Shown: piece by piece, positions 1 through 44,349 of the stretch
Layout: every line of letters begins with the position of its first letter
How positions within the stretch are numbered: position 1 is the first letter of the stretch
IMG/VR virus record: IMGVR_UViG_3300042401_002002
DNA from: a virus
Taxonomy: Duplodnaviria > Heunggongvirae > Uroviricota > Caudoviricetes
Strand: one strand, 5' to 3'
DNA length: 64,000 nt
Made by a program: the position numbers and the translations under genes
The notes under the pieces: model-generated
What the model saw: only the letters and a program-made list of their open reading frames with translations
Told to the model about the DNA's origin: nothing
Database searches by the model: none

Positions 1-952
1 TAAGTACTAAAATATCCGAAATTTCTTTGTGCCAGAACGGAAAGTGAGTTGTAGAGTTACCACCACGAACACCGTTTTGAGTCGTTGATTTAGTAGCAGC
101 TTCAAAGTGTTTTAAAAATGGAACAACACCTGTATGAACAACTTCACCGTTTCTAATTGAATCACCTAATGCTCGAATCCTACCGAAATTAAGACCTATG
201 CCTGCTTTACTTGCTGTGTATCTTGTAACCGCACCATTACTAGCAATAATTGAATCTAATGTATCATCTACATCAATTAAAGTACATGAACTATATGTTC
301 TTGAAGGTGTTCTTACACCAGACATAACAGGTGTTGGTAAATTTATTTTTAATAATGAAATATCATTATAGAAACTATGAATTTTGTTAATTCTTTCTTC
401 TTTTTTTACATCAGCAAATAAAGTCATAGCAATTAACATAAACATATATTGTGGTGTTTCATATAATACACCTGTTTTTCTATGTTTAAGTAAATATTTA
501 TCAATCAATTGTTGAATACCTGCGTATGTAAAATTATAATCACGCTGATGTTTGATTAATTTGTTAATTTTATCTAGTTCTTCTGATGTGTAATTTTCAA
601 GTACTACAGCATCATAAACACCTAAATCAATATTCTTTTGAATTACTTCTTTAATGTGTGGTAAACCGTCAACAGTTTCAAAAACTTCTTTACGTAGTAA
701 ATAATTAGCTAAATTAGCAGCAACATACTGATAATTTGGTTCAGTTTCAGAAATTAAACTAGAAGCTGATTGTATTAATACTTTATGTATTTCTTTTGTT
801 GTTATATTGTCATGTAACTGCAATTTAGCGTTCATAGCAATAGTAGAAGCAGAAACATGTTTAACATTTTCTGTTGCCCAAAGTAAAACTTTGTTAATTT
901 TTTCATAATCAAGCGGTTCAGCACCACCATGTCGTTTAACTACGTTAATCAT
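1..952 (-). CDS. nrdA: Ribonucleotide reductase class Ia alpha subunit, N-terminal part (runs off window start)
   Basis: Hand translation from ATG at 952: MINVVKRHGGAEPLDYEKI (ATP cone), YETPQYMFM, LPTPVMSGVRTP, SSCTLID, QNGVRGG, FPFWH. Confidence 0.95.
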   Translation of the reverse strand, partial: MINVVKRHGGAEPLDYEKINKVLLWATENVKHVSASTIAMNAKLQLHDNITTKEIHKVLIQSASSLISETEPNYQYVAANLANYLLRKEVFETVDGLPHIKEVIQKNIDLGVYDAVVLENYTSEELDKINKLIKHQRDYNFTYAGIQQLIDKYLLKHRKTGVLYETPQYMFMLIAMTLFADVKKEERINKIHSFYNDISLLKINLPTPVMSGVRTPSRTYSSCTLIDVDDTLDSIIASNGAVTRYTASKAGIGLNFGRIRALGDSIRNGEVVHTGVVPFLKHFEAATKSTTQNGVRGGNSTTHFPFWHKEISDILVL

Positions 953-1018
953 AGAAATTTATTTAGTTTAGATAAAAATAACCAACTTTAAGGGTTGGTT
1001 ATGTAGGTTATTAGATTA

Positions 1019-1049
1019 CAAATCTACAATATTAAAATCAATATTGCAA
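1019..1049 (-). promoter_or_regulatory. Bacteroidota housekeeping-type promoter upstream of nrdA
   Basis: Minus strand TTG-N20-TAGATTTG matches the -33/-7 (TTTG / TAnnTTTG) consensus. Confidence 0.6.
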
Positions 1050-1057
1050 CTTTTTTC

Positions 1058-1243
1058 TTAAGAAATTCTTTTATTTATTGTTGTTAAACAGTTTTTGTAC
1101 TGTTGTTCAAGCTGTTCCAATTCATCAATTTTTTCAAGAATTTCTTTATTTAATTTTTCAACTGCCGAAACAGTGTCTCTTTGTATTGCAAGCAAACTTT
1201 CGTTCTTTTGTTTGTTTAATTCTTCTTCAGTATAAATTCGCAT
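1058..1243 (-). CDS. Hypothetical coiled-coil protein
   Basis: ORF track, 61 aa; preceded by a CTATTTA motif. Confidence 0.6.
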   Translation of the reverse strand: MRIYTEEELNKQKNESLLAIQRDTVSAVEKLNKEILEKIDELEQLEQQYKNCLTTINKRIS

Positions 1244-1274
1244 GATTAAAAAGTGGTTTTTACTTTAAATAGTT

Positions 1275-1430
1275 TTATCTTGAAAAAGTCACTAAAGAAT
1301 TAAAATAAAAATTTCGTTTAGCATGATTTATTTTTTCTTCTATTGTTAAGTCATAAGGTTTATTAAAACCTGCAAGTAGATAACTGAACGCCTTAAGTGA
1401 TATATCAATGTTTGATATGTTTAATTTCAT
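1275..1430 (-). CDS. MKL-family microprotein (51 aa)
   Basis: MKLNISNIDISLKAFSYLLAGFNKPYDLTIEEKINHAKRNFYFNSLVTFSR. Confidence 0.75.
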   Translation of the reverse strand: MKLNISNIDISLKAFSYLLAGFNKPYDLTIEEKINHAKRNFYFNSLVTFSR

Positions 1431-1600
1431 CTTTTTAAAATAAATAAGTAATTATAGTTTGGTTTGTACATTGTAATAGCGTTTTTAATCATTTGTTCTG
1501 GAGTTGTTTTTCCAAAACCAAATTTTCTTGGAATACCACAAGCTAAATACATTTCATTTGGGTCGATGAGTGGTGAATATTTTAATATATTTAATTTCAT
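1427..1600 (-). CDS. MKL-family microprotein (57 aa)
   Basis: MKLNILKYSPLIDPNEMYLACGIPRKFGFGKTTPEQMIKNAITMYKPNYNYLFILKR. Confidence 0.8.
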   Translation of the reverse strand: MKLNILKYSPLIDPNEMYLACGIPRKFGFGKTTPEQMIKNAITMYKPNYNYLFILKR

Positions 1601-1728
1601 CTTTCGTAAATATAAATTCTGTTACAATTTTTTAAATAAAAAAACGAAAGTTCTTTATTTTCAACAAAATAAGTAAACCAAACTGAATGTTTAAACCTAC
1701 TTCCCGTTCTAACTATTGAAAGTTTCAT
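1597..1728 (-). CDS. MKL-family microprotein (43 aa)
   Basis: MKLSIVRTGSRFKHSVWFTYFVENKELSFFYLKNCNRIYIYER. Confidence 0.8.
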   Translation of the reverse strand: MKLSIVRTGSRFKHSVWFTYFVENKELSFFYLKNCNRIYIYER

Positions 1729-1847
1729 CTTAAATAAATTATTAGTTTGTTAGTTAATAATTTAATATATTTATCATGTCCATTTATTTTACGAACCAAT
1801 CCTGTATTTATAATTTTATTAGTATGTTGGAACATTTTTAATCTCAT
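1725..1847 (-). CDS. MKL-family microprotein (40 aa)
   Basis: MRLKMFQHTNKIINTGLVRKINGHDKYIKLLTNKLIIYLR. Confidence 0.8.
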   Translation of the reverse strand: MRLKMFQHTNKIINTGLVRKINGHDKYIKLLTNKLIIYLR

Positions 1848-1969
1848 CTTAAATAAATTATTACCTTGTTTCTAAATCCTTTTAAACCGTAATCGTCCTT
1901 TATTCTTTGGTAAGAAACTGAATCAATAAACTTTACATTACTTCCGTTGTTAATTATTTTAAGTTTCAT
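1844..1969 (-). CDS. MKL-family microprotein (41 aa)
   Basis: MKLKIINNGSNVKFIDSVSYQRIKDDYGLKGFRNKVIIYLR. Confidence 0.8.
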   Translation of the reverse strand: MKLKIINNGSNVKFIDSVSYQRIKDDYGLKGFRNKVIIYLR

Positions 1970-2091
1970 CTTTTGTAGATTAAAATTTGGTTTTTATATT
2001 CAAACATATATTTATATCCGATTTGACTTCTATAATAAAACATAGATTCTTTAAATTTAACAGCTACTATTTTATCTATTACCAATTTCAT
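1966..2091 (-). CDS. MKL-family microprotein (41 aa)
   Basis: MKLVIDKIVAVKFKESMFYYRSQIGYKYMFEYKNQILIYKR. Confidence 0.8.
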   Translation of the reverse strand: MKLVIDKIVAVKFKESMFYYRSQIGYKYMFEYKNQILIYKR

Positions 2092-2219
2092 CTTTCGTAA
2101 ATGTAAATTTTGTTTAAATCGTATTTATTTAAATCGTAATCATTTTGTAAACATTCGTTTATTGGTGAATATTTAAACTTGCTGTAATAGTAACTCATGT
2201 TTAGTACTTTTATTTTCAT
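2088..2219 (-). CDS. MKL-family microprotein (43 aa)
   Basis: MKIKVLNMSYYYSKFKYSPINECLQNDYDLNKYDLNKIYIYER. Confidence 0.8.
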   Translation of the reverse strand: MKIKVLNMSYYYSKFKYSPINECLQNDYDLNKYDLNKIYIYER

Positions 2220-2341
2220 TTCTTGTAAATATTTATTTCGTTTGAATAAAGTTTAATAAACATATTTGGATTATTTATTAAATGAAATAATTCACTTGTT
2301 ATAAACCAGTCATATTGGTAAATTGAATATTTAAGTTTCAT
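2216..2341 (-). CDS. MKL-family microprotein (41 aa)
   Basis: MKLKYSIYQYDWFITSELFHLINNPNMFIKLYSNEINIYKK. Confidence 0.8.
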   Translation of the reverse strand: MKLKYSIYQYDWFITSELFHLINNPNMFIKLYSNEINIYKK

Positions 2342-2484
2342 CTCAAATAAATTATTATTTCATTTAAATCATATTCTTCAATAGGAAACATTAGTAAAGG
2401 TTCAATGTCGTTATTTAAAATTAAATATCCTAATATAACTGACTCATTTATTTTACTATCTGATTGTCTTATTTCTAATTTCAT
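2338..2484 (-). CDS. MKL-family microprotein (48 aa)
   Basis: MKLEIRQSDSKINESVILGYLILNNDIEPLLMFPIEEYDLNEIIIYLR. Confidence 0.8.
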   Translation of the reverse strand: MKLEIRQSDSKINESVILGYLILNNDIEPLLMFPIEEYDLNEIIIYLR

Positions 2485-2609
2485 CTTTCTAAAATGTATA
2501 ATTTGTTTGTCATTTCAAATATTTGTTGGTAATTATTTTCAACAAGATGTCCGTAAATAGTTGTTATGTTAAAGGGAAAATCATCATGATTACTTATTTC
2601 TAATTTCAT
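2481..2609 (-). CDS. MKL-family microprotein (42 aa)
   Basis: MKLEISNHDDFPFNITTIYGHLVENNYQQIFEMTNKLYILER. Confidence 0.8.
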   Translation of the reverse strand: MKLEISNHDDFPFNITTIYGHLVENNYQQIFEMTNKLYILER

Positions 2610-2742
2610 TTTTGTAAGTGTAAATTGAATTTATATTATATTCATTATGTTTAACATAATTGTTTGAACCAATTGTAATTAATCTAAACCAAGATGTTGA
2701 TGTAAATTTTAGATGAGTATTTTCGTATAAATTAAGTTTCAT
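2590..2742 (-). CDS. MKL-family microprotein (50 aa; 1-nt shift at the junction extends the tail)
   Basis: MKLNLYENTHLKFTSTSWFRLITIGSNNYVKHNEYNINSIYTYKNEIRNK. Confidence 0.75.
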   Translation of the reverse strand: MKLNLYENTHLKFTSTSWFRLITIGSNNYVKHNEYNINSIYTYKNEIRNK

Positions 2743-2876
2743 CTTTTGTAAATTTGTAGTTGATTTATCCAGTTTTCTATATTAATCCAATTACAATCTT
2801 CTTTTAAGAATAGAATATAAATACTTAATTCATTAAAATGACTAATTGCTTTATTACTAAAAACTACAAGTTTCAT
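2739..2876 (-). CDS. MKL-family microprotein (45 aa)
   Basis: MKLVVFSNKAISHFNELSIYILFLKEDCNWINIENWINQLQIYKR. Confidence 0.8.
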   Translation of the reverse strand: MKLVVFSNKAISHFNELSIYILFLKEDCNWINIENWINQLQIYKR

Positions 2877-2896
2877 TAGTTATTTGTTTATAATAA

Positions 2897-2928
2897 CAAA
2901 TCTACAATTTTTATTTAATTTAACCAAA
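2897..2928 (-). promoter_or_regulatory. Bacteroidota housekeeping-type promoter driving microprotein array 1
   Basis: Minus strand TTTG-N20-TAGATTTG, 20 nt upstream of the first ATG. Confidence 0.7.
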
Positions 2929-2947
2929 CTATTTACAATAAAATATC

Positions 2948-3643
2948 ATGGCTCAAGTTGGTTGTACGTCTGGTTCGGTTTTGGTTGATTCTACTAACCG
3001 TTATTCATCAAATAATAGTGTTACTGTAACTACTAACCCTAGTAATATTGATGACCAAGAAACTACTACAACATCTTCTGATACAGCTGGTCAAACAACA
3101 TCAAATTCAACACCTGGTGGAACTGACCCTAATGATGCACCTAAAGTACCTATTGTTAATGTAACACCTGTTGAAACTACCACAAATACTGTTGTTTTAT
3201 TACCTGTTACTGATTTAACAGGTTTGTTAGATAATGAAGTTTTAATTAGATGTTCTGTTGGTTTATATAAAACAACAACTAATCCTGTTACAGGTGGTAC
3301 TATAGTTATTGATTTCGGTTATATACCTAAAGGTGGTTCAAATGGTGATTTTAGACCATATTCTTCACAACAAATTAATGTATCTTCTGATTTTAATTCA
3401 ATAGGCTATAATAATGCTTTTTATAATTCTGAATTTGGTACAGGAATTACCCCTACATTTGATTTTGTTAATAATAAAGTAGTAAGAGTTGAATTTGTTC
3501 ATCAAATGTATGATTATTTAGCTTATGCTAATACTGATGCAACTTATTTTAATAATCTTATTGAAAAATTTGCTGTTAGAATTAATTCTATTAATACATC
3601 TTCAAAAAATATAGGTGTTGCTGCTGTAATCGTATTCTTTTAA
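2948..3643 (+). CDS. Hypothetical Thr/Ser/Asn-rich protein, possibly virion-associated
   Basis: ORF track, 231 aa; upstream CTATTTA motif shared with structural genes. Confidence 0.6.
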   Translation: MAQVGCTSGSVLVDSTNRYSSNNSVTVTTNPSNIDDQETTTTSSDTAGQTTSNSTPGGTDPNDAPKVPIVNVTPVETTTNTVVLLPVTDLTGLLDNEVLIRCSVGLYKTTTNPVTGGTIVIDFGYIPKGGSNGDFRPYSSQQINVSSDFNSIGYNNAFYNSEFGTGITPTFDFVNNKVVRVEFVHQMYDYLAYANTDATYFNNLIEKFAVRINSINTSSKNIGVAAVIVFF

Positions 3644-3707
3644 TTTTGTTTATTCAATAATTTTTATTAGATTACAAAATCAACATAAGTTTTAAACTTT
3701 TAATAAC

Positions 3708-4001
3708 ATGTTTATTTATTTAATTTCAAACCAAAACGGTTTTTATAAGATTGGTGTTTCTAAAAACCCTGATAAAAGAATAAAATCAATGGAAACAGGG
3801 AATCCGGATGATTTGATTATCCTTTATAGGTATACTACTAAACAAGCACATACAATAGAAAGAATTTTACATAGAATGTTTGAATCTTATAGAGTTAAAT
3901 TAGAGTGGTTTGAGTTACCTATTTATGAAGTACGTAATTTTTTATACAATTGTTCTAAAATAGAATGTAATCTAAATTATTTGGAAGAAAATAAAATTTA
4001 A
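3708..4001 (+). CDS. T5orf172/MUG113-like GIY-YIG domain protein
   Basis: IYLI...YKIGVSKNPDKRIKSMETGN...E..LH......EWF motif. Confidence 0.8.
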   Translation: MFIYLISNQNGFYKIGVSKNPDKRIKSMETGNPDDLIILYRYTTKQAHTIERILHRMFESYRVKLEWFELPIYEVRNFLYNCSKIECNLNYLEENKI

Positions 4002-4005
4002 TATT

Positions 4006-4305
4006 ATGAAAATTCAAAAAGTTAAAGGATTTAGGTTAAACAAACATTATTTTAAACTGTATTTGTTTGAAATTTTAATCATGTTAACGGTAGATTTAGG
4101 TTGTTACATAAGTTTAATTACTTTAGCTTATGATAAAAACTTTGGTTTGTTTTTTAAGAACAAAAGACAGAAATCTTATGGAATAGAATTTAATTTTGTT
4201 GACAGAAATACAGTTAACGAGAAAATGTATATATCTGTTTATGAATATAATAATATTCAAAATAACAAAACTAAAGTTATTAATAAGTTATTTCCTATTA
4301 AATAG
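4006..4305 (+). CDS. Hypothetical protein
   Basis: ORF track, 99 aa, 4 nt after the previous gene. Confidence 0.5.
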   Translation: MKIQKVKGFRLNKHYFKLYLFEILIMLTVDLGCYISLITLAYDKNFGLFFKNKRQKSYGIEFNFVDRNTVNEKMYISVYEYNNIQNNKTKVINKLFPIK

Positions 4306-4422
4306 AAATATCTGGTTATAAACAATAAAATAATCCTTAGCTTCTTCGTTATTCTGAATAATAGAATAAATCCAGTAATCTTTTAGGCTTGCATAAACAT
4401 AAGGTTCTATTTGAAGTTTCAT
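4288..4422 (-). CDS. MKL-family microprotein (44 aa)
   Basis: MKLQIEPYVYASLKDYWIYSIIQNNEEAKDYFIVYNQIFLFNRK. Confidence 0.75.
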   Translation of the reverse strand: MKLQIEPYVYASLKDYWIYSIIQNNEEAKDYFIVYNQIFLFNRK

Positions 4423-4426
4423 TTTT

Positions 4427-4564
4427 TTATTTGCGTTTAAGTAAAAATATTTTATTTGTTATTATACCGAAATATTTAGCATTATTATCATTTTGAATTA
4501 TTGAATAAAAGTAGTGATTTTCATCAAATATGTTATATTGGTCTTTAAGAAATATAAGTTTCAT
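4427..4564 (-). CDS. MKL-family microprotein (45 aa)
   Basis: MKLIFLKDQYNIFDENHYFYSIIQNDNNAKYFGIITNKIFLLKRK. Confidence 0.78.
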   Translation of the reverse strand: MKLIFLKDQYNIFDENHYFYSIIQNDNNAKYFGIITNKIFLLKRK

Positions 4565-4749
4565 TTTTTTAATATCATTAAAAGGTTGCAATCAAATTCA
4601 TCTACGTTTAACCATGTATAGGAACCACTTATACTATAATGATATTCAAAGTCAATACATAGATTATAATAAAAGTTACCGACCTTGAATTCATTAGGTG
4701 TTGAACCAGGTCGGTTTCCTTGTGTTGGATAGATAATTTTAAGTTTCAT
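4561..4749 (-). CDS. MKL-family microprotein (62 aa)
   Basis: ORF track; MKLKII...CNLLMILKK; the only family member long enough to appear in the track. Confidence 0.8.
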   Translation of the reverse strand: MKLKIIYPTQGNRPGSTPNEFKVGNFYYNLCIDFEYHYSISGSYTWLNVDEFDCNLLMILKK

Positions 4750-4886
4750 CTTTCTAATATTAATAAACTGTTATAAAACCCTTTGATATTTGTAAAGGTT
4801 AGAATCCCTAAATATTCAAGTTGAATAGATGTTGTTTCAAAACCTATAAATTTGTAATCTTCTGTTACAGTTGTATCTAATTTCAT
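4746..4886 (-). CDS. MKL-family microprotein (46 aa)
   Basis: MKLDTTVTEDYKFIGFETTSIQLEYLGILTFTNIKGFYNSLLILER. Confidence 0.8.
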   Translation of the reverse strand: MKLDTTVTEDYKFIGFETTSIQLEYLGILTFTNIKGFYNSLLILER

Positions 4887-5041
4887 CTTTTATAAATTAA
4901 TATTTCGTTTCTACTACCAGAAATTAATTCGTAATAAATATCTAAATCAAACAACATTATTTTATTACTATCTGATTCACTTCTTTTAAAATACAAATGT
5001 TCACCTTTCGATTTAATATTATAAAATATATCTAATTTCAT
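4883..5041 (-). CDS. MKL-family microprotein (52 aa)
   Basis: MKLDIFYNIKSKGEHLYFKRSESDSNKIMLFDLDIYYELISGSRNEILIYKR. Confidence 0.8.
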   Translation of the reverse strand: MKLDIFYNIKSKGEHLYFKRSESDSNKIMLFDLDIYYELISGSRNEILIYKR

Positions 5042-5169
5042 CTTTTATAAATATATATGTTATTGCGCCAATCTTCAAAAGTATCTCTTTTTAACTTAAA
5101 TAAAACTTGATAGATATAACCTCTATCGAATTCTATTGATTTACCGTAGTTATAAATTTTTAATTTCAT
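5038..5169 (-). CDS. MKL-family microprotein (43 aa)
   Basis: MKLKIYNYGKSIEFDRGYIYQVLFKLKRDTFEDWRNNIYIYKR. Confidence 0.8.
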   Translation of the reverse strand: MKLKIYNYGKSIEFDRGYIYQVLFKLKRDTFEDWRNNIYIYKR

Positions 5170-5294
5170 CTTTTATAAATTATGATTTCATTGTACCAAC
5201 CAACAAAATTATCATTTTCCAAGCCAAATAGAACTCGATAGATATAACTTCTACCGAATTCCAAATGTGTTTCTCTGTCAACAAGTAATATCAT
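5166..5294 (-). CDS. MKL-family microprotein (42 aa)
   Basis: MILLVDRETHLEFGRSYIYRVLFGLENDNFVGWYNEIIIYKR. Confidence 0.8.
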   Translation of the reverse strand: MILLVDRETHLEFGRSYIYRVLFGLENDNFVGWYNEIIIYKR

Positions 5295-7024
5295 TTCCCC
5301 TCAAAAGTGTTGATAATATCCTTCGGGTCCACCACGATTTGTCTGAAGAATCTAGGTTCGTTAATTATTTTACATTCAATTCCACATGAAATAATAACAA
5401 CTTTTTTGAAACCTGATAAATCTAATGTATCACAATAACCATCGGTTAAGATTAATAAGTTTTCTCTACCAAAGTTTTGTTTTACGTAATTAATACCTGG
5501 CATTAATTCGGTACCACCGTAAATATCGTGTAGTTGTTTAAGATTTCTAATATCTTTTTGACTTTTGATTTTTACTATGTTTTTTTCATTAACTACAGTA
5601 TCACAGAAGACTAGATTACCAACATAATTATCTTTTATACAGAAACCTAATATAGGTTCAACGCAACCACCCATACTTCCACTAACATCACACACAATAT
5701 TTAATGACTTAATATCATAAAACCTACCTTTAACAATAAATTCACTATCACTGTGTTTTTTGTTGTTTTTCTTGTAAGTTCTGTTTAATGAACCACTACC
5801 TTTTAATTTATTTACTGTACTAAAGATAACCTTTAAGAAGTTTTCTTTTTGTGGTGTGATTTGTTTCATTAATTCATCTACAAACCCTGTATCAACACCT
5901 CTTGCTTTACAATAAGCATCAATGTTTCGCATCCTATCTGCAATTTCTTCTGGTGATATTTCATCTTCATCACTTGATGTAAAATCATCTAATGATTGGA
6001 AGTTTTTACCACCTCCACCACTTGGGTTGTTTTTGTCAACTAAATATCTTAGTGCATATAAATCTAATGTACCTGTATATCTATCATCTTGTACATAAGT
6101 GATATTGTCATTATTTTTAATAATGTTTAGGTAGTCGTGTGATTTAATATGAACTTTATAAGTTTGATTATCTTTTAAGATTCTATCTCTAACAACATCA
6201 TAACCTATTGTATCACATTCACTCTGTAGTTTTTTAATATGTTCATCAAAAAATTGATACAGTTGTTCAAATACTAAATTAGAGTTATTTTCACCTTTAT
6301 CATAACCAGCTTCTAAAAAAGGTTCTAAATGAATACCTGACCCACATTTTTCCCAGTTTGATGGGAATATATAATGTTTATACGGGTTTTCTTCGTCAGG
6401 ATATGATTTTGGGTCATAATTAGGGTTAATTTCTAATTCTTTTATTATTTCACCCATTATTCTAATATTATTAGATAATTTATCAAATCTTTTCTTTGAT
6501 TCTTGGTTATCTGGGTTTTTTTGAAGATAATTAGATAATGTTTCTAATTTATCAGTTGATTGTAATAAATCAAGTTTAATTGTATCAAGTGGGGAGTCTT
6601 GAAATATCAAACTAATATGGTCACGTAATGCAACTTGGAACCTTTCAGCTCTATATTGGTATTGTATATTGTAGTTGATAATAGCATCAGTAACAATATT
6701 ACATTTACTTCTTTGAACCTCATTTGTAAAACCATACAGACGTTGTAAGTGTGCTGATTTGATGTGCATTAACTCATGGAAAATTAAATATGTAATTTCT
6801 GAGTTTTCTAATTTATTAATGAAATGTTCATTATAAGAAAATAAGAAATTTTTAAACTTAGCAGATACACAAGCAGTATCAATATCGGTTCTTTCTTTGA
6901 ACTCAATTAAGGTTGTGAAATAACCAAAATAACGATGTGCTGTTAATGATGAATGTGTTAATAAATCAATAATAGCGTTTGTTAATTTAGCATTTTTAAT
7001 TTTTACTGGAGATTCGTATGACAT
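5291..7024 (-). CDS. Metallopeptidase-like / vWA domain protein (DUF2201-like)
   Basis: N-terminal HELMH (HExxH); C-terminal MIDAS DVSGS, GGTE, LTDG. Confidence 0.85.
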   Translation of the reverse strand: MSYESPVKIKNAKLTNAIIDLLTHSSLTAHRYFGYFTTLIEFKERTDIDTACVSAKFKNFLFSYNEHFINKLENSEITYLIFHELMHIKSAHLQRLYGFTNEVQRSKCNIVTDAIINYNIQYQYRAERFQVALRDHISLIFQDSPLDTIKLDLLQSTDKLETLSNYLQKNPDNQESKKRFDKLSNNIRIMGEIIKELEINPNYDPKSYPDEENPYKHYIFPSNWEKCGSGIHLEPFLEAGYDKGENNSNLVFEQLYQFFDEHIKKLQSECDTIGYDVVRDRILKDNQTYKVHIKSHDYLNIIKNNDNITYVQDDRYTGTLDLYALRYLVDKNNPSGGGGKNFQSLDDFTSSDEDEISPEEIADRMRNIDAYCKARGVDTGFVDELMKQITPQKENFLKVIFSTVNKLKGSGSLNRTYKKNNKKHSDSEFIVKGRFYDIKSLNIVCDVSGSMGGCVEPILGFCIKDNYVGNLVFCDTVVNEKNIVKIKSQKDIRNLKQLHDIYGGTELMPGINYVKQNFGRENLLILTDGYCDTLDLSGFKKVVIISCGIECKIINEPRFFRQIVVDPKDIINTFEGK

Positions 7025-7088
7025 TTTATCTTGGTTTTAAATTGTTTGTTATTAATTGATATGCAAAATTATATAAATTTTATTTAAA

Positions 7089-7358
7089 TTACAATGAAGT
7101 TGCGGATTTAATTTCAATAAACCAATCAGGATTATTTTCAACATCATCTTTATAGAAATAATAAGATTTATATTTATCTTCGCGATATTCTTCATCTGTG
7201 ATTGAATGAAAATAATCACCTCTGATAGTTTGTTTAAATATCCTACCAGCTGGACATTTTATTAAATCTTTAATTATTTTAAACGTTCTCATGTTATAAC
7301 CGACTTTTAAATTTTGAATGATTTTTAGCAATTCTTTTAGAAGTTTCTTCGATTGCAT
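7089..7358 (-). CDS. Hypothetical protein (true start probably MRTFKII)
   Basis: ORF track. Confidence 0.55.
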   Translation of the reverse strand: MQSKKLLKELLKIIQNLKVGYNMRTFKIIKDLIKCPAGRIFKQTIRGDYFHSITDEEYREDKYKSYYFYKDDVENNPDWFIEIKSATSL

Positions 7359-7599
7359 CTTTTATTTCTTTAGTAATCGGTTTACTATTTTGAAATAAAT
7401 GTTTTGTTATTTTAGCGTTGTTAGGTACATATAATTTATAACCAACATAAAACCAAATTATTATTTCTGTTATTCCAGTTAAACCTCGTAAGGTTGTGTC
7501 TGTATGCCTAATATTGGTAGCTAAATAACATAAATATTCTGATAGTGCAACTATCAAAGGATACAGTAGCATCCAAAGTACGAAGGGTAGGTTTTTCAT
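7294..7599 (-). CDS. Hypothetical membrane protein (2 TM)
   Basis: Two hydrophobic segments; its ATG overlaps the TGA of the upstream microprotein. Confidence 0.65.
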   Translation of the reverse strand: MKNLPFVLWMLLYPLIVALSEYLCYLATNIRHTDTTLRGLTGITEIIIWFYVGYKLYVPNNAKITKHLFQNSKPITKEIKDAIEETSKRIAKNHSKFKSRL

Positions 7600-7730
7600 C
7601 TTTTATAAATTAATATATTGTTCGTCCAATTTTCAGAATTAATCCAATTTTCATTAGTCTTAAGAAATTTAGTATATAACTTAGTGTTGTAAAGGTATAT
7701 ACCATCAGTATTGTTTATGTCTAGTTTCAT
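7596..7730 (-). CDS. MKL-family microprotein (44 aa), singleton
   Basis: MKLDINNTDGIYLYNTKLYTKFLKTNENWINSENWTNNILIYKR; ATGA overlaps at both ends. Confidence 0.8.
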   Translation of the reverse strand: MKLDINNTDGIYLYNTKLYTKFLKTNENWINSENWTNNILIYKR

Positions 7731-8026
7731 ACAGTTTTTATTTTAACAGTATCTTTATGATAAATTGGTAATAAATAACAATCTTCACCTTCTAATAATC
7801 TTTTTACCATTAATGGTGTGTCATCAAAACCCATTTTGAAACAAAAGAAATCATTATCATCTGAACAATATGGACCTTTATTGTAACGTACACTAAATAT
7901 ACCATTACCATAATAAAGTGCTATATCCATTGTATTTTGGTTTTTATTTCTTAATAACAAGTAATAAACCTCACTACCATCATTTTCTTTTAAAACTTCC
8001 CAATTATAATCACCACATTGAATCAT
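7727..8026 (-). CDS. Hypothetical protein
   Basis: ORF track, 99 aa. Confidence 0.6.
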   Translation of the reverse strand: MIQCGDYNWEVLKENDGSEVYYLLLRNKNQNTMDIALYYGNGIFSVRYNKGPYCSDDNDFFCFKMGFDDTPLMVKRLLEGEDCYLLPIYHKDTVKIKTV

Positions 8027-8055: not shown

Positions 8056-8175
8056 TTATCTTGCAAATATATTAATTTGGTTGAGATAATTTAAGTCAAC
8101 TAATCCTTGAATATGATTGTTGCGTAAAACAACATAATTTTTAACCTGTTTTACACGAAATATTTTTAATTTCAT
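8056..8175 (-). CDS. MKL-family microprotein (39 aa), singleton
   Basis: MKLKIFRVKQVKNYVVLRNNHIQGLVDLNYLNQINIFAR. Confidence 0.75.
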   Translation of the reverse strand: MKLKIFRVKQVKNYVVLRNNHIQGLVDLNYLNQINIFAR

Positions 8176-8195: not shown

Positions 8196-8222
8196 AACGC
8201 AAACCTAACTAAAAGGTTTCAA
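8196..8222 (-). promoter_or_regulatory. ECF-sigma-like promoter overlapping a TAnnTTTG box
   Basis: TTGAAACCTTTTAGTTAGGTTTGCGTT (TGAAAC-N16-CGTT); near-copy at 12965-12991. Confidence 0.65.
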
Positions 8223-8275
8223 TAAAACAAAAATAATTGTTGGAAATCTTTTAAATAACCAACAATTATTATTTT

Positions 8276-8401
8276 TTATCTAACAAAAATGCCTAACCAA
8301 TTACAATGATTTTTAGTAAGATTGGTAGTTCCTAAAACAGTGCTTTTATAAAAAACTGTTGAAGTGAACGAAATTCCAAAGTCTGATTTTTTAAGTTTCA
8401 T
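8276..8401 (-). CDS. MKL-family microprotein (41 aa), singleton
   Basis: MKLKKSDFGISFTSTVFYKSTVLGTTNLTKNHCNWLGIFVR. Confidence 0.75.
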   Translation of the reverse strand: MKLKKSDFGISFTSTVFYKSTVLGTTNLTKNHCNWLGIFVR

Positions 8402-8404
8402 ATA

Positions 8405-11400
8405 TCAATTAATACTAATCAAACTACAACCTTTTTCATCAGCTGTTACAGTTAAACTGTAATCAACATTTAATTCATCACTGTAAGCGTGTTCAATGAT
8501 GACTATTTTCTCAATTTTTTCTTTGATTTTATGAATTAACTCAAAGAAATTAGTTACTGAATCACCAACTAGTTTACCTGTTACCTCATCTAAGAATAAA
8601 AAGTTACCTAATGATTTATTATTAATTGACCTTAATGCTAATCTTAATATAATCGAAATAAAGGTCCTTTCCATTCCGGAGCCACCAATTACATTTTGTA
8701 TAGCTGTATTATCATTGTAACTATACATTTTTAATGTCATATTTTCATCAAAATAAACATTAAAGTTACATAAATCATTGATTAAATTATGTATTTCATT
8801 GTTGATGTCTTCTCTCATATTTAATAAGAGTAATTTAGGTACACCATCTCTGTGAATACACTCAACATAACAAGTATTAATTTGTTCTTCAAGTTCTTGT
8901 TCTTGAAATTTACTTATTCTGTCATTAATTGTTTTAATGTTATTTGTTAAGGTTGTAATAACATTATTTTCAATAAAACTAACATTTGCTTTAATTCCAT
9001 TAACTTCATCTTGTAAAGTTTTTAATCTAGCATCGTAAGTATCTATTACCTTTTGAACCTTTTCATTTTCAATAACTTTATTGTTTTCAATAACAACTCT
9101 ATCATAGGTATTTTTATTATTACCTATTTTCAAGTCAACATTTTCAATTAATAAAGGAATGTTGTTCTTTTGGTTAACTAATTGTTGTCTTTTATCGAAT
9201 TCTTCTTTTTCTTTTTCGATTTCAACAATTAATTCCTGGTTTTCTGACATCTTAACAGATGTATCCTCTAAATCTTGTTTGAAACGTATGATATTAGCTT
9301 CAAGTAACTTAATATCATTTTCAAAACCAACCTTTTTACTCTCTTCATTTTTTATTTTGTTTAAAGATTCTGAAATTTTATCCTTTAATGATAATATTTC
9401 TTTGGTATCTTGTTCCTTAATATTATTTTCAAAACATTTAATAGTTTCTAATATACTAAGAATCTCAGGTGTATTATTTTTAGATTCCTCTAACTGGTTT
9501 ATTTCAGTTTTTTTATCATTAATCTTATTTTGAATGATAACTAACTGAGCTTTACCTAATTCTCTGTCACAAGATGGGCAAATTTTGCTTTTATCTAAAA
9601 TTTCTATCTCAGATAAAATATTATTAATTTTAGAATCAATCTGTTTATTAATTAAACCAATTTCTTGTTCTTTTAACTTGATTTTAGATTCTAAATTACC
9701 TAATTCTTTAGTAATATCAGTTTTAAAAGAATCAATAGACCTGTTTAGAAGTAATATATTACCATTGCAAACAGCAATATCATTTCTAACTGAATCAACC
9801 TTATTAGTTGTTTCTTTAATATTCGATTTTACCCCAATAAACTCGTTCTGTAATGAATCTTTTATACCACATAAGGTATTATATCGTTCAATGTTATAAG
9901 TGTCTCTTAGAATTGATATTTTTTGTTCAAGTTCTTTTTGAGAAACAAAATAACTATCTTTTTGTTCAATTAAAACATTTAATTCTTCTTTAAGTTTGTC
10001 AAGTGAAGTGTTAGCTAAGGCTTTGTCAATAGGATGTAACTTTTTAAGTTCATTTTCCTTGTACTCTTGACCTGTTTTTAACCTTTTCTCTCTATCAACT
10101 AAAGAATCATTAAGTTCTTTGATTTTGTCTTTGTTGGTTTGAATTTCATCTTTTATTAATTGAATTTTAACCAATTCATCTTCTACTTTAAGAACTATTT
10201 TTTCTTCTTTTTTATAAAGTTCTTTTTTGTAGTCTTTGTATTCAGCTAATTTTCTTTCAAAAACATCTAAACCTGAATATTTTAAAATACTATCCATAAA
10301 TACTGATTCATCCATTGATAATAAATTATTCAATGTATCAGCATTAACTAAATATAAAGCTAAGAAATCATCAAATGAACCAATTATATTTGATAAATAT
10401 TCCTGGTTTTTAGATTTTTCTTCATCAGTTTGGTTGATTATTTCACCATTACTATCAATAAGATTGATTTTTAATGTTGTTGGACAAGCTGTAATCTTAG
10501 TTTTACTTCTATCCCACTTTCTTTCAGTTCTTCTAACTAAAGAAAATCTAGTTTCATCAACATTTATAATAGCACCTGATTCACAGTAATCTAAATCACG
10601 TTTGTTATTAATAAATCTGTTATCACCATTGGTTTCTCTTTTTAGAGTTTCTAATGTTTTACCATGTAATAAATATAAAATACCTGAAAGTAAATTGGTC
10701 TTACCAACTGCATTTTCACCCATAATTTGATACAAACCGTTGTTTTTATCCCAGTTCATTTCAAATCTATCAGCATGTGAACGATAGTTATCAATATAAA
10801 AAGATTCAATTCTCCAATCTTTTCTTTCAATACTATTAGATGCCCCTAATCTTTTATTAATTTTATTATCTATCTCAATAACTTTGTCAATAAATTCAGG
10901 TTCATAATTTTTATTTAACAAATGTTGTTTAAATACTTGTTGCTGTACATCGTAATTGGTAATATTAACCAAAGATTTTCTAACAAAATCATTCTCAACA
11001 ATTTTATTGTTTCTTATTTTGTTTTCTTTCTTTTTAACTTCAACAACGGTTGGGTATTTGGATTGTATAAATAACTTAATCTTTCTCCAATTTTCACTTG
11101 TAAAATTAATAGCATCATCGGTCCAATCAACTTTTACGTGAGTATATTTCTTAACCTCAGAAGATTTAAGTTTAATATTTAAATTATCGTAATCAATTGT
11201 TTCATCAACACCAGTACCTTTTAAGTAATAGTTAATGTAACTATATTCATTTTCAATCTCAATAAGTTCATGTTTTATGTTTTTAACATCTGAGATGTTC
11301 CATAAAATAAAGCCATGTTTATCAACAGATTCACCATAATTATTTTGATATAATGATGATGGATATGCACCTTTAATTGATTTATCTTTATTATGAAATA

Positions 11401-11983
11401 ACTGATATTGATGTATGTCACCCATTAATAATAAATCACCTTCAAAGTCTTCTAAACTAACATATTTAGAATCTTCAAATTCTTGACCAAAAAATGTTCT
11501 TGAACCATTAATAGGGTCATGAAATAAATCAATAACTAATTTATCTGTTGGTTTGGTAAAACCAGGTTCTAAAACCCAAGGTGATGTCTTGTCGCTATGA
11601 TGCCATACTGACCAAATTACATTTTCATCATTGTAAAATGTGGTCGCATCGTAATATTTAACCTTTGGGTTGTTAATCAAATTGATAACAGTATTTACTG
11701 AATCAACACGATTAACAGCTTTCATGTTAAGGTCATGGTTACCTAATGTAACTCGAACTTCAGCAATTTTAGATAGTTCATTCAAGAACCAACCACCAAG
11801 TTTTTTGGTTTCATTGTTTACTTTATTAAAATCATGAAATAAATCACCAACTATAACTATTCTGTCAGGTTTAACCTCGATTAGTTTTTTGATTGTGTTT
11901 TCAAGAACTTGTTTTTGTCTTGCTTGATACTCAAGTTTATTCATTAAATGAATATCTGAGAGGTGTGCTATGGTTTTTATCAT
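8405..11983 (-). CDS. Fused SbcD/Mre11 nuclease and SbcC/Rad50 ATPase (gp47-gp46-like)
   Basis: Phosphoesterase motifs SDIH, GDLFH, GNHD, GDIH; Walker A GENAVGKT; long coiled coil with CPSC zinc hook; signature GSGME, Walker B FLDE, H-loop IIEH. Confidence 0.93.
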   Translation of the reverse strand: MIKTIAHLSDIHLMNKLEYQARQKQVLENTIKKLIEVKPDRIVIVGDLFHDFNKVNNETKKLGGWFLNELSKIAEVRVTLGNHDLNMKAVNRVDSVNTVINLINNPKVKYYDATTFYNDENVIWSVWHHSDKTSPWVLEPGFTKPTDKLVIDLFHDPINGSRTFFGQEFEDSKYVSLEDFEGDLLLMGDIHQYQLFHNKDKSIKGAYPSSLYQNNYGESVDKHGFILWNISDVKNIKHELIEIENEYSYINYYLKGTGVDETIDYDNLNIKLKSSEVKKYTHVKVDWTDDAINFTSENWRKIKLFIQSKYPTVVEVKKKENKIRNNKIVENDFVRKSLVNITNYDVQQQVFKQHLLNKNYEPEFIDKVIEIDNKINKRLGASNSIERKDWRIESFYIDNYRSHADRFEMNWDKNNGLYQIMGENAVGKTNLLSGILYLLHGKTLETLKRETNGDNRFINNKRDLDYCESGAIINVDETRFSLVRRTERKWDRSKTKITACPTTLKINLIDSNGEIINQTDEEKSKNQEYLSNIIGSFDDFLALYLVNADTLNNLLSMDESVFMDSILKYSGLDVFERKLAEYKDYKKELYKKEEKIVLKVEDELVKIQLIKDEIQTNKDKIKELNDSLVDREKRLKTGQEYKENELKKLHPIDKALANTSLDKLKEELNVLIEQKDSYFVSQKELEQKISILRDTYNIERYNTLCGIKDSLQNEFIGVKSNIKETTNKVDSVRNDIAVCNGNILLLNRSIDSFKTDITKELGNLESKIKLKEQEIGLINKQIDSKINNILSEIEILDKSKICPSCDRELGKAQLVIIQNKINDKKTEINQLEESKNNTPEILSILETIKCFENNIKEQDTKEILSLKDKISESLNKIKNEESKKVGFENDIKLLEANIIRFKQDLEDTSVKMSENQELIVEIEKEKEEFDKRQQLVNQKNNIPLLIENVDLKIGNNKNTYDRVVIENNKVIENEKVQKVIDTYDARLKTLQDEVNGIKANVSFIENNVITTLTNNIKTINDRISKFQEQELEEQINTCYVECIHRDGVPKLLLLNMREDINNEIHNLINDLCNFNVYFDENMTLKMYSYNDNTAIQNVIGGSGMERTFISIILRLALRSINNKSLGNFLFLDEVTGKLVGDSVTNFFELIHKIKEKIEKIVIIEHAYSDELNVDYSLTVTADEKGCSLISIN

Positions 11984-12099
11984 TTTCTTGGAAATATTAT
12001 TAGTGCGTTGTGGTTGGATTTAGTAGTAAAGTTTTTTATACGTAACATTTCGATTTTATAATCTAGACCACTTAATAAACCTGTTATGTATAATTTCAT
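11980..12099 (-). CDS. MKL-family microprotein (39 aa)
   Basis: MKLYITGLLSGLDYKIEMLRIKNFTTKSNHNALIIFPRK. Confidence 0.8.
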   Translation of the reverse strand: MKLYITGLLSGLDYKIEMLRIKNFTTKSNHNALIIFPRK

Positions 12100-12227
12100 C
12101 TTTTTGTTATTATTAATCGGTTGTAGTGAATTTCGGGTATATATCTTTCAGTTTTATTATTAATTCTATGAAAAACTCCACTATTATTGAATAGTACAAA
12201 GTTTGAGTTAGTTATTTTTAATTTCAT
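12096..12227 (-). CDS. MKL-family microprotein (43 aa)
   Basis: MKLKITNSNFVLFNNSGVFHRINNKTERYIPEIHYNRLIITKR. Confidence 0.8.
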   Translation of the reverse strand: MKLKITNSNFVLFNNSGVFHRINNKTERYIPEIHYNRLIITKR

Positions 12228-12343
12228 CTTCTTTCAAAAATTAATAACATGTTATGATTTCTTTTGTTTTGTAAAGTGAATTCAGATGTTATCTCACGTT
12301 TCCAGTTAAACGTTTTCAATAAAGCAGATATATCTAATTTCAT
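12224..12343 (-). CDS. MKL-family microprotein (39 aa)
   Basis: MKLDISALLKTFNWKREITSEFTLQNKRNHNMLLIFERR. Confidence 0.8.
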   Translation of the reverse strand: MKLDISALLKTFNWKREITSEFTLQNKRNHNMLLIFERR

Positions 12344-12549
12344 CTTTTAAATTTTTTATATAATTTATATAAAATATAACTTTTTAGTGAAAATCCAAAT
12401 ATAACTAAAATTATTATAAAATAACTATTATCTATTTGGAATATTAGATAGATATCTAATAAGCAAGCCACTAATAAGAATATTGATAACATAATACCTA
12501 GTTTCTTAAAGAAATTGAATTCTAATCTTTTGATTGTTTCTATTGTCAT
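12340..12549 (-). CDS. Small membrane protein (2 TM) embedded in array 3
   Basis: ORF track, 69 aa; ATGA overlaps at both ends; ends FKR. Confidence 0.7.
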   Translation of the reverse strand: MTIETIKRLEFNFFKKLGIMLSIFLLVACLLDIYLIFQIDNSYFIIILVIFGFSLKSYILYKLYKKFKR

Positions 12550-12677
12550 CTTGTGTAAATTGTTATGTAATTAATAAAATTATTTATATTTTTACCTGGT
12601 TTATGACTACCTTTCATAAAATTATAATCAGGACTTGTTAAGAAAAAGCTATTGGGTTTACTTATATTTAATTTCAT
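12546..12677 (-). CDS. MKL-family microprotein (43 aa)
   Basis: MKLNISKPNSFFLTSPDYNFMKGSHKPGKNINNFINYITIYTR. Confidence 0.8.
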   Translation of the reverse strand: MKLNISKPNSFFLTSPDYNFMKGSHKPGKNINNFINYITIYTR

Positions 12678-12693
12678 CTTTTGTAAATTATTA

Positions 12694-12807
12694 TTATCTG
12701 TCAAGAATTAATAAACGATTATAATTTATTTTTAAATCACGTCCAGAAGTTATCATGTAATAAGGTGTTATATCACCTAAATAAGGTTTCCAAATTTTTA
12801 ATTTCAT
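12694..12807 (-). CDS. MKL-family microprotein (37 aa)
   Basis: MKLKIWKPYLGDITPYYMITSGRDLKINYNRLLILDR. Confidence 0.78.
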   Translation of the reverse strand: MKLKIWKPYLGDITPYYMITSGRDLKINYNRLLILDR

Positions 12808-12944
12808 CTTTTAAATATTACCATTGCGTTACTCCATCTTTTTATCTTAATTTTACTTTTTTGTTTTCCAACTAAAACATGATAATAAAGATTATCACTA
12901 ACAAAATTAACTTTATACGTACTATTATCTATTTCAAGTTTCAT
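12804..12944 (-). CDS. MKL-family microprotein (46 aa)
   Basis: MKLEIDNSTYKVNFVSDNLYYHVLVGKQKSKIKIKRWSNAMVIFKR. Confidence 0.8.
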   Translation of the reverse strand: MKLEIDNSTYKVNFVSDNLYYHVLVGKQKSKIKIKRWSNAMVIFKR

Positions 12945-12964: not shown

Positions 12965-12991
12965 AACGCAAATCTACATAAAAGGTTGCAA
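12965..12991 (-). promoter_or_regulatory. ECF-sigma-like promoter overlapping a TAnnTTTG box; drives array 3 and sbcCD
   Basis: TTGCAACCTTTTATGTAGATTTGCGTT (TGCAAC-N16-CGTT). Confidence 0.65.
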
Positions 12992-13045
12992 TAAAACAAA
13001 TAATTTTTAAAAATAGTTTGGTTCTATTTATTAAAAACAAAATCA

Positions 13046-15827: not shown

Positions 15828-15968
15828 TTATTTTGAATAAATTTTAAGATAATTTAATCCATAATCAGTTAACTCTTCGTTAATATTTATGTTGTTTATG
15901 TAAAAATATACTGCTGAATATTTAAACCTAGGTGCTAGTTCAGTTAGGTTATCTATTTTTAGTTTCAT
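15828..15968 (-). CDS. MKL-family microprotein (46 aa)
   Basis: MKLKIDNLTELAPRFKYSAVYFYINNININEELTDYGLNYLKIYSK. Confidence 0.78.
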   Translation of the reverse strand: MKLKIDNLTELAPRFKYSAVYFYINNININEELTDYGLNYLKIYSK

Positions 15969-16102
15969 CTTGTATATATTGTTATGTAATTAAACCACCT
16001 TTCCCATAATTTATTAATAGTTCTTTCGCCTATAAGTACCTCAAAATCACTTGATTCAGTAAATAACATAGTTTCAAAATTTGTTTCTATTATTAGTTTC
16101 AT
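15965..16102 (-). CDS. MKL-family microprotein (45 aa)
   Basis: MKLIIETNFETMLFTESSDFEVLIGERTINKLWERWFNYITIYTR. Confidence 0.82.
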   Translation of the reverse strand: MKLIIETNFETMLFTESSDFEVLIGERTINKLWERWFNYITIYTR

Positions 16103-16230
16103 CTTGTATAAATTTGAATGTAATTAGTCCAAACAGAAATATCTTTGATTATAAACCTACCCATTAATAATTCATAATCAGCTGAATAAATAAAAATTAT
16201 ATCTGTATCTGTTTGTTGTTTAAGTTTCAT
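16099..16230 (-). CDS. MKL-family microprotein (43 aa)
   Basis: MKLKQQTDTDIIFIYSADYELLMGRFIIKDISVWTNYIQIYTR. Confidence 0.82.
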   Translation of the reverse strand: MKLKQQTDTDIIFIYSADYELLMGRFIIKDISVWTNYIQIYTR

Positions 16231-16358
16231 CTTTTGTAAATTGATAAATTATCTAAACCGAAAACACCTTTATCTAAACTGTTGATTATTTTGAATAATC
16301 TAGATTTTTTAAAAGGTATATCAGAATATTTTGGTCTGTTTAGTATTTTTAGTTTCAT
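16227..16358 (-). CDS. MKL-family microprotein (43 aa)
   Basis: MKLKILNRPKYSDIPFKKSRLFKIINSLDKGVFGLDNLSIYKR. Confidence 0.8.
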   Translation of the reverse strand: MKLKILNRPKYSDIPFKKSRLFKIINSLDKGVFGLDNLSIYKR

Positions 16359-16486
16359 CTCCAATAAACGTTTATGTAATTAGTCCATATTTCCCCTGGT
16401 TCTATTTCACGATGATTAATAAGTAAATCATAATCACTTGATTGGGAAAATCTTAAACTCTGATATTTTTCTATTCTAAGTTTCAT
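16355..16486 (-). CDS. MKL-family microprotein (43 aa)
   Basis: MKLRIEKYQSLRFSQSSDYDLLINHREIEPGEIWTNYINVYWR. Confidence 0.82.
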   Translation of the reverse strand: MKLRIEKYQSLRFSQSSDYDLLINHREIEPGEIWTNYINVYWR

Positions 16487-16614
16487 CTTTTGTAGATTTG
16501 TATGTAATTAACCCAACTATAAATATCATTTATCTTGCCTTTGCTAGTTAATATTTCGTAATCAACTGAATCAACGAATTTGTTATCTATATCGGTTTGT
16601 TGTTTAAGTTTCAT
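16483..16614 (-). CDS. MKL-family microprotein (43 aa)
   Basis: MKLKQQTDIDNKFVDSVDYEILTSKGKINDIYSWVNYIQIYKR. Confidence 0.82.
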   Translation of the reverse strand: MKLKQQTDIDNKFVDSVDYEILTSKGKINDIYSWVNYIQIYKR

Positions 16615-16742
16615 CTCACAAATATACAAATTTTATTGCACCAAAATTTAACTAAATAATGGTCTCCATTATCTGATAATAAGAATCCTTGCATACCTGA
16701 ATGATTAAAATCACCCATATCGTTGTATTGATTAACTTTCAT
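16611..16742 (-). CDS. MKL-family microprotein (43 aa)
   Basis: MKVNQYNDMGDFNHSGMQGFLLSDNGDHYLVKFWCNKICIFVR. Confidence 0.78.
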   Translation of the reverse strand: MKVNQYNDMGDFNHSGMQGFLLSDNGDHYLVKFWCNKICIFVR

Positions 16743-16756
16743 ATTAATTTATATTT

Positions 16757-16839
16757 AAAAAGATAGGTTGTAAATTATATTACAGAACTTAATTGCGTCT
16801 GTTTTTATTTACATTTTTATAATTACAACCTATCTTTTT
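16757..16839. repeat. 17-bp perfect inverted repeat with a 49-nt loop
   Basis: AAAAAGATAGGTTGTAA (16757-16773) / TTACAACCTATCTTTTT (16823-16839). Confidence 0.85.
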
Positions 16840-16971
16840 TTATCTTTTGTAAATGTTTATATTATTAGTCCAATTTTCAACAGGACTTATAATACGTTCA
16901 CCTATTAACAAAATATAATCTAGTGAATTTATAAATTCATTATCCTCTTGGTAAATTACATCTAATTTCAT
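16840..16971 (-). CDS. MKL-family microprotein (43 aa)
   Basis: MKLDVIYQEDNEFINSLDYILLIGERIISPVENWTNNINIYKR. Confidence 0.82.
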   Translation of the reverse strand: MKLDVIYQEDNEFINSLDYILLIGERIISPVENWTNNINIYKR

Positions 16972-30282: not shown

Positions 30283-30313
30283 AAAACCTCTCTTAAATAT
30301 TAGGAGAGGTTTT
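30283..30313. terminator. Bidirectional intrinsic terminator
   Basis: AAAACCTCTC...GAGAGGTTTT; overlaps the stop of the GIY-YIG gene. Confidence 0.7.
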
Positions 30314-44345: not shown

Positions 44346-44349
44346 TGTA

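Follow-up and report, generated by a model that had tools for sequence, protein, structure and literature searches.

Twelve chained microgenes of one orphan family, with cassette-like turnover, predicted in the genome of a large AT-rich phage

The hyperplastic regions of T4-type phages contain cassettes of ORFan genes that are bounded by PeSL elements (Arbiol et al. 2010, PMC2839356; Comeau et al. 2014, PMC4122927). A PeSL is non-coding and consists of a promoter and a stem-loop terminator, every cassette thus having its own transcription signals (PMC2839356, PMC4122927). Here we describe array 1, a chain of twelve very small genes predicted on the minus strand (positions 1275-2876) of a 64,000-nucleotide (nt) stretch of DNA from an uncultured phage (Caudoviricetes, IMG/VR record IMGVR_UViG_3300042401_002002); this whole stretch is referred to as the window. 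The PeSL-mediated shuffling of ORFans is the closest described system to array 1. In both, small genes, most of them orphans, form runs that are flanked by conserved modules of a large phage. Among close relatives whole genes have been inserted, deleted or replaced, with the breaks in a short motif that recurs at the gene boundaries. The motif itself is of a different nature: the joint of array 1 is coding, comprising the last codons of one gene, a stop/start overlap and the first codons of the next gene, and has no promoter or terminator. Moreover, the cassettes of array 1 all come from one protein family.

Two other kinds of system are similar in part. In translationally coupled operons of bacteria and phages, an ATGA overlap of stop and start codons serves termination-reinitiation. 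Array 1 likewise has 4-nt overlaps between co-oriented genes that leave no intergenic gap, and no internal promoter or terminator was found by consensus scans. It departs from the usual coupled operon in having eleven successive couplings between paralogs of 40-57 codons, in a genome without Shine-Dalgarno (SD) sequences. Libraries of the prochlorosin type comprise many tandem or dispersed genes encoding a long conserved leader and a core rich in Cys, Ser and Thr, and have a dedicated synthetase. Like these libraries, the family of array 1 has dozens of small genes in one genome with conserved and hypervariable segments. Unlike them, it conserves only 5 + 8 terminal residues and its protein has a predicted fold, and a scan of 20 large open reading frames (ORFs) of the window recognised no modifying enzyme.

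Array 1 is tiled by 12 ATG-started ORFs: unit 1 (2739-2876, 45 amino acids [aa]), unit 2 (2590-2742, 50 aa), unit 3 (2481-2609, 42 aa), unit 4 (2338-2484, 48 aa), unit 5 (2216-2341, 41 aa), unit 6 (2088-2219, 43 aa), unit 7 (1966-2091, 41 aa), unit 8 (1844-1969, 41 aa), unit 9 (1725-1847, 40 aa), unit 10 (1597-1728, 43 aa), unit 11 (1427-1600, 57 aa) and unit 12 (1275-1430, 51 aa). The higher coordinate of each is the position of its ATG. From start to start, the spacings are 134, 133, 125, 143, 122, 128, 122, 122, 119, 128 and 170 nt, and the last unit, whose protein ends in N-x-L-x-x-F-x-R, stops with a TAA at 1275 that overlaps no further start. A preliminary description of the same DNA had listed 12 units with these spacings, which match the minus-strand ATG positions exactly; its dozen different peptides correspond to 12 distinct microprotein genes, ATGA-chained and supported by the coding evidence given below.

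Ten of the 11 joints are 4-nt ATGA stop/start overlaps. The remaining one, between units 2 and 3, is a 20-nt overlap. Units usually end in ...AAA AGA TGA, whereas the end of unit 2 reads ...TAC AAA AAT GAA...; the difference between AAA-AGA-TGA and AAA-AAT-GAA is consistent with the loss of 1 nt at this joint, which gives unit 2 six additional residues, a TAA stop and the overlap with unit 3. Such a loss extending one unit had also been proposed in the preliminary description, and this is the joint at which it is seen. The codon preceding AGA at the joints varies (AAA, GAA, TTA, ACA and others). At the DNA level the repetition in array 1 is confined to the joints, where 25-50 nt with 65-90% identity recur every 119-170 nt.

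Four independent grounds in the sequence, namely open frames, codon usage, selection and synonymous variation, argue that the 12 ORFs are genes. The strand of array 1 carries 12 ORFs of at least 40 aa, compared with a mean of 0.34 and a maximum of 4 in 2000 shuffles, and the opposite strand of the region carries one. At a stop expectation of 10.1% per codon, the probability of a single 43-codon open frame is ~0.01. When the first five and the last eight codons of each unit were removed, the remaining interiors matched the codon usage of the large phage genes better in their own frame than in either shifted frame in 12 of 12 units, with summed log-likelihood advantages of +148 and +140. Selection was assessed by comparing eight orthologous units with those of a syntenic metagenomic relative, which carries the same array (ENA ERZ28613030; hereafter L004). 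In the annotated frame the proportions of synonymous (pS) and nonsynonymous (pN) differences were 0.208 and 0.047, respectively, with a dN/dS of 0.20, whereas the two other frames yielded dN/dS values of 1.9 and 0.93. Ordinary neighbour genes have pN/pS values of 0.00 to 0.29 at similar pS; by this comparison the microgenes are constrained like accessory proteins and less tightly than enzymes. Synonymous codons are used at conserved residues in the family to which the units belong (Leu3: CTT 22, TTA 18, CTA 5; Asn-8: AAT 19, AAC 15; Tyr-3: TAT 10, TAC 9), which indicates selection on the protein and not only on the DNA of the joint.

The same observations bear on the idea that array 1 does not code for protein and is a set of DNA or RNA repeats (for example iterons, a CRISPR-like array or the source of a processed RNA). 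Conserved joints at regular distances do give the DNA the look of repeats with unique spacers. A non-coding array would not be expected to show the open frames, the phage-like codon usage, the frame-specific purifying selection or the synonymous variation at conserved residues; in addition, Rfam had no match over 900-5400, and Tandem Repeats Finder did not detect array 1. We consider this explanation extremely improbable.

Together with ~36 others in the window, the 12 units form one family of ~48 members of ~43 residues. The proteins start with M-K-L-x-I, contain an inner pattern F...S..Y...L/I, and end in (W/F/Y)-x-N-x-L-x-I-Y-x-R; all 48 members start with ATG. The other members lie, also on the minus strand, in six arrays (4288-5294, 11980-12944, 15828-16971, 43937-44711, 45643-46325 and 56918-57430) and as three singletons (7596-7730, 8056-8175 and 8276-8401). 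Median identity is 33% within array 1 and 31% between array 1 and the other arrays; as these values are about the same, array 1 is not a recent amplification. Net charge ranges from -5.5 to +7.7 with a median isoelectric point of 9.5, units 3 and 4 of array 1 being acidic, and Cys, Ser and Thr make up 0.7%, 5.5% and 4.7% of the residues, respectively.

Structure prediction suggests that conserved N-terminal and C-terminal strands flank a variable, mostly helical middle. The AlphaFold2 model of unit 8, made with an alignment of paralogs, consists of a strand (residues 4-7), a helix (14-25) and a second strand (35-38), and has a predicted local distance difference test score (pLDDT) of 84. For unit 9 a strand-helix-helix-strand arrangement was predicted (pLDDT 73). 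Prediction of a complex between units 8 and 9 gave a score of 0.02, which counts neither for nor against binding. No match to the family was found in Pfam, PHROGs, PADLOC or the sequences of the PDB, a profile search of the PDB gave a single match at E = 2, and a feature-based search of the protein Atlas returned no usable match. Comparison of the unit 8 model with the PDB by Foldseek (best E 2.3), with BFVD (best E 2.4) and by a wide VIA-align search (best Z 2.2) yielded nothing above noise, and the best hit in the ESM Atlas, a beta-alpha-beta piece of triosephosphate isomerase with a TM-score of 0.51, was at noise level; a fold of 41 residues is inherently hard to match, which limits what these negative fold searches can say.

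Short conserved ends around a hypervariable core of ~30 residues, repeated in dozens of tandem genes, would also suit a library of precursor peptides similar to those of ribosomally synthesized and post-translationally modified peptides, in which a processing or cyclising enzyme recognises the end motifs and the middle is the product. A candidate enzyme could be seen in the 577-aa protein (5291-7024), which carries a putative metallopeptidase domain and is ATGA-chained to a neighbouring array. Several features of the family fit poorly: the ends are modelled as strands within a compact fold, the conserved hydrophobic residues inside the presumed core (F, Y, L/I, W) resemble a folding core, Cys is scarce while Ser and Thr are unremarkable, and none of the 20 large ORFs scanned was recognised as a known peptide-modifying enzyme. 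A precursor library thus seems quite unlikely.

Outside the window the family is rare. A profile search of 1.84 billion representative proteins returned just 38 matches at E <=0.001, 37 of them 41-48 residues long; the one long match does not contain the matched stretch, so no fused form of the module was found among these proteins. Other carriers of the family are short metagenomic contigs with ATGA-chained arrays, two of which come from a marine ENA assembly (UPTL01). The phage or its relatives occur in the samples SRR25083400, ERR3761196, SRR30127103, SRR36525748, ERZ28613030 and JGI 3300045588 and 3300059473. The GenBank phage collection had no DNA match to 1000-7100 of the window, tblastn of a typical unit against it found nothing at E up to 1, and an IMG/VR search with the neighbouring 577-aa protein found no relative.

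Another possibility is that the units are joined into a polyprotein by repeated -1 frameshifting or by read-through of TGA. The spacings are 2 mod 3, which puts each unit in the -1 frame of the preceding one, as frameshifting would require. All 48 units have their own ATG, no conserved slippery heptamer occurs at the joints, and no longer protein bearing the module was present among the 1.84 billion representatives. TGA is a normal stop of eight large ORFs in the window, and ribosomes reading through the TGA of a unit would meet a back-up TAA or TAG after 1 to 12 codons. A polyprotein is therefore very improbable.

Comparison with relatives revealed turnover of whole units. Between the window and L004 the sequence is collinear at ~91% (blastn) from unit 5 to a 61-aa ORF outside the microprotein family, which starts 31 nt past array 1 on the minus strand (1058-1243) and is 100% identical at the protein level. 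Beyond unit 5 the two arrays differ: in L004, units 4 and 5 are separated by two additional units, unit 3 is missing, and two different units take the place of units 1 and 2. The one that replaces unit 1 is unrelated to it; the other is a look-alike of unit 2 (~30% identical and not clearly an ortholog) that ends in an ordinary ATGA. Unit 4 is 98% identical at the protein level to L004 13550-13696. The blastn breakpoints (2882, 2488 and 2343) are at unit starts or within a few bases of them. L004 orthologs of units 5, 6 and 11 have 90%, 93% and 77% aa identity, respectively. The L004 counterpart of unit 7 is a mosaic, having the first ~14 residues in common and then diverging (49% aa identity).

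Two further relatives, L001 and L002, share orthologs of units 8 and 10 with the window and L004. Unit 11 is absent from L002 and replaced in L001, and unit 9, which is present in the window and L004, is missing from both as a 119-nt indel flanked by a 27-nt direct repeat that is formed by two joints. DNA identity varies between adjacent units, from 87% to 99%. Since the joints alone are repeated and the breakpoints are located there, the joint appears to be the handle by which recombination adds, removes or exchanges whole genes. Two points were absent from the preliminary description, namely that the units are one family under purifying selection and that the joints are recombination points. 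The L004 counterpart (8823-11816) of the array at 4288-5294 contains, in addition to extra units, a 240-aa gene and a 533-aa TnpB-like gene, indicating that arrays also take up larger insertions.

This turnover has to be set against the possibility that the units co-assemble through their conserved terminal strands into a single hetero-oligomeric sheet or particle, coupling keeping their amounts nearly equal. The conserved parts of the protein are indeed the two terminal strands, a lone strand-helix-strand of 41 residues leaves strand edges open, and ATGA chaining would favour matched amounts. A fixed assembly fits poorly with the free variation of unit number and identity among close relatives, with the wide range of charges (-5.5 to +7.7), and with ~48 copies spread over seven or more arrays and, as singletons, among ordinary genes. 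On balance, co-assembly is unlikely.

The breakpoints at the joints would also be expected if the peptides mattered little, and the microgenes served as a cis-acting chain that holds the mRNA covered by ribosomes (to protect it from Rho or RNases, or to bring ribosomes to downstream genes) or were selfish cassettes spread by recombination at their joints. Chaining to ordinary genes can be read in the same way: family members are ATGA-chained to the 577-aa protein and to a 1192-aa nuclease (8405-11983), and further ATGA-chained ordinary genes beside family members are the 99- and 101-aa ORFs at 7294-8026. The dN/dS of 0.20 and the phage-typical codon usage of the variable interiors point to selection on the protein sequence, and array 1 ends without a chained downstream gene. 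A device or a selfish element of this sort is distinctly improbable.

A promoter-like box precedes array 1 on the minus strand (2897-2928). It consists of a -33 TTTG (2925-2928), a 20-nt spacer and the -7 octamer TAGATTTG (2897-2904), and exactly 20 nt separate the end of TAGATTTG from the first ATG (2876). Inside array 1 (1275-2876) a consensus scan of the coding strand found no further full box, the sole other -7-like octamer having no -33 element, and no terminator-like site was found by consensus scan inside or after array 1. Because no terminator follows, the predicted transcript may continue into the 61-aa ORF.

The primary-sigma promoters of Bacteroidota have the elements -33 TTTG and -7 TAnnTTTG, of which the -33 element is weak, and in mapped promoters of Flavobacterium johnsoniae a G at -10 or -9 is virtually absent, giving the revised -7 consensus TAHHTTTG (PMC6847099). 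The phage box shares with these promoters both elements in the same order, the 20-nt spacer and a short leader, and TAGATTTG fits the classical TAnnTTTG, with the -33 TTTG about two helical turns upstream. It differs as a fixed variant with an invariant 20-nt spacer and a G at -10 (also at -9 in TAGGTTTG copies). The G at -10 breaks the refined consensus, which is that of F. johnsoniae. The motif class TTG-N20-TAG(A/G)TTTG occurs six times in the window against 0.21 expected, a number reached in none of 100 shuffles, and five of the six copies lie just upstream of co-oriented genes, three of these five preceding microgenes. In L004 the -7 octamer is retained, the -33 element reads CTTG, and the first unit behind the box is a different gene.

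We therefore predict that the box is a Bacteroidota-type promoter of a phage-specific variant, a description that the G at -10 makes preferable to that of a plain housekeeping promoter. With the numbering of the F. johnsoniae promoters (PMC6847099), the predicted transcript would start near 2892 and have a leader of ~16 nt. The preliminary description had reported the TTTG-N20-TAGATTTG box 20 nt upstream of the first ATG as the array's own host-type promoter. The box is located there, and it is the only full one found at the head of or within the 12 chained genes. The assignment of its -7 element to the Bacteroidota housekeeping type holds for TAnnTTTG and fails for a plain housekeeping promoter, TAHHTTTG being violated; 'housekeeping' and 'immediate-early' are assumptions for this promoter, and so is the coupled stoichiometry that the same description proposed for the peptides. 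The arrays lie among genes of replication and nucleotide metabolism, which suggests early or middle expression.

Several further promoter-like segments occur in the window. Near-identical segments of ~55 nt, each with promoter and leader, head two different microgene arrays on the minus strand (8196-8231 and 12965-13000). They contain TTTG-N20-TAGGTTTG or TAGATTTG, followed by GCGTTGAA.ATAAAATATT.GAAAG-ATG, and their CGTT tail is absent from the box of array 1. A second TTG-N20-TAGATTTG box (1019-1049, minus strand) is located ahead of the ribonucleotide reductase gene (ATG at 952), in whose leader a 9-bp hairpin is followed by a T-run (978-1002, minus strand); this could be an attenuator or a regulatory hairpin. 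The heptamer CTATTTA occurs on the minus strand at 1266-1272, 22 nt before the ATG of the 61-aa ORF, and on the plus strand at 2929-2935, 12 nt before the ATG of a divergent 231-aa gene at 2948. With 26 copies against ~42 in shuffles, the heptamer shows no overall enrichment, yet it is often found just upstream of starts.

Translation signals point in the same direction as the promoter. None of the 42 large ORFs of the window is preceded by an SD-like 4-mer; upstream of these ORFs G is under-represented between -15 and -5, and 28 of the 42 have A at -3. A start context lacking SD, depleted in G and with A at -3 has been described for Bacteroidota (PMC6847099). The host thus probably translates without SD sequences, which points to Bacteroidota, and reinitiation at the joints of array 1 would likewise have to work without SD. 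Each of the three stop codons terminates some of the large ORFs, from which we conclude that the genetic code is standard.

Taken together, we interpret array 1 as a genuine operon of 12 microgenes of one orphan family, which evolve in a cassette-like manner and for which a role as small binders is a guess; for this reading as a whole we estimate a probability of about 0.55. A single mRNA would start near 2892 from the TTG-N20-TAGATTTG box, and ribosomes would pass from unit to unit by termination-reinitiation at the ...A-AGA-TGA-AA... joint, which also places an A at -3 of each start. One joint of 20-30 nt would thus have three roles: it would provide codons for the terminal strands, act as a translational coupler, and serve as a patch of homology at which unequal recombination could shuffle the cassettes.

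As to function, each unit may be a small protein that folds on its own and has a variable surface directed at a different host target, in take-over or counter-defence. This is a guess, to which we would give clearly less than an even chance. More doubtful is its extension to the whole window, according to which the ~48 MKL microgenes would be a repertoire of surface variants on one minimal strand-helix-strand scaffold, exchangeable binders against host targets or defences that are diversified and reshuffled by recombination in a joint serving as codons, coupler and homology patch. If true, the MKL repertoire would represent a new class of phage counter-measure system.

Several points weigh against the operon of exchangeable small binders. 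The fold comes from two AlphaFold2 models, for which 46 to 66 paralogs were used and no matching structure serves as an anchor. The proposed binders have no homolog with a known role, and a 41-residue fold has too little complexity to hint at a role. The dN/dS value derives from one main relative and from few substitutions per unit. The transcript, its start and timing, and the peptides are predicted from sequence, and the host from promoter and translation signals only. Finally, the G at -10 may mean that the box needs a phage factor, or that the host is not a Flavobacterium-like member of Bacteroidota.

Genes of ~43 codons are often missed or ignored. Here they fill the greater part of what look like gaps in the genome of a large phage, and they evolve as real genes do. 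Should the operon reading hold, a single joint of 20-30 nt encodes the end-strands, couples translation without SD and permits swaps of genes between phages. Two questions become testable, how SD-free reinitiation proceeds in translation of the Bacteroidota type, and what large blocks of orphan microgenes are for in big phages. The units are short enough for chemical synthesis, which makes tests of folding and binding cheap.

The joints were also used as a search pattern. A DNA pattern of three joints matched 39 IMG/VR and 120 GTDB loci, none of which contained the family as judged by hidden Markov model; these are thus chance or protein-repeat matches. A tighter joint pattern found at least 120 loci in metagenomes of the Joint Genome Institute (JGI), and among the matches listed the family was present in two (UPTL01). 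The JGI contigs L167-L246, except L199 and L207, have 27-40% G+C, come from few samples and are without the family. They may represent another kind of repeat array, unrelated to array 1.

The phage is very AT-rich (26% G+C, with 24-31% along the window), and the proteins of the window are on record from a contig of 308,574 bp. Replication and recombination genes of the window include a family-B DNA polymerase, a fused Mre11/Rad50-like nuclease, ribonucleotide reductase and helicases; no tRNA genes were found in it. The best matches of the DNA polymerase, from Salinibacter and Nostoc phages, have ~26% identity, so no cultured relative is close. Genes typical of selfish elements are scattered across the replication region: a T5orf172/GIY-YIG-like 97-aa ORF, two GIY-YIG homing endonucleases and a TnpB (OrfB_IS605 with a Cas12f1-like TNB), at 3708-4001, 17845-19128, 26253-27533 and 30293-31435.

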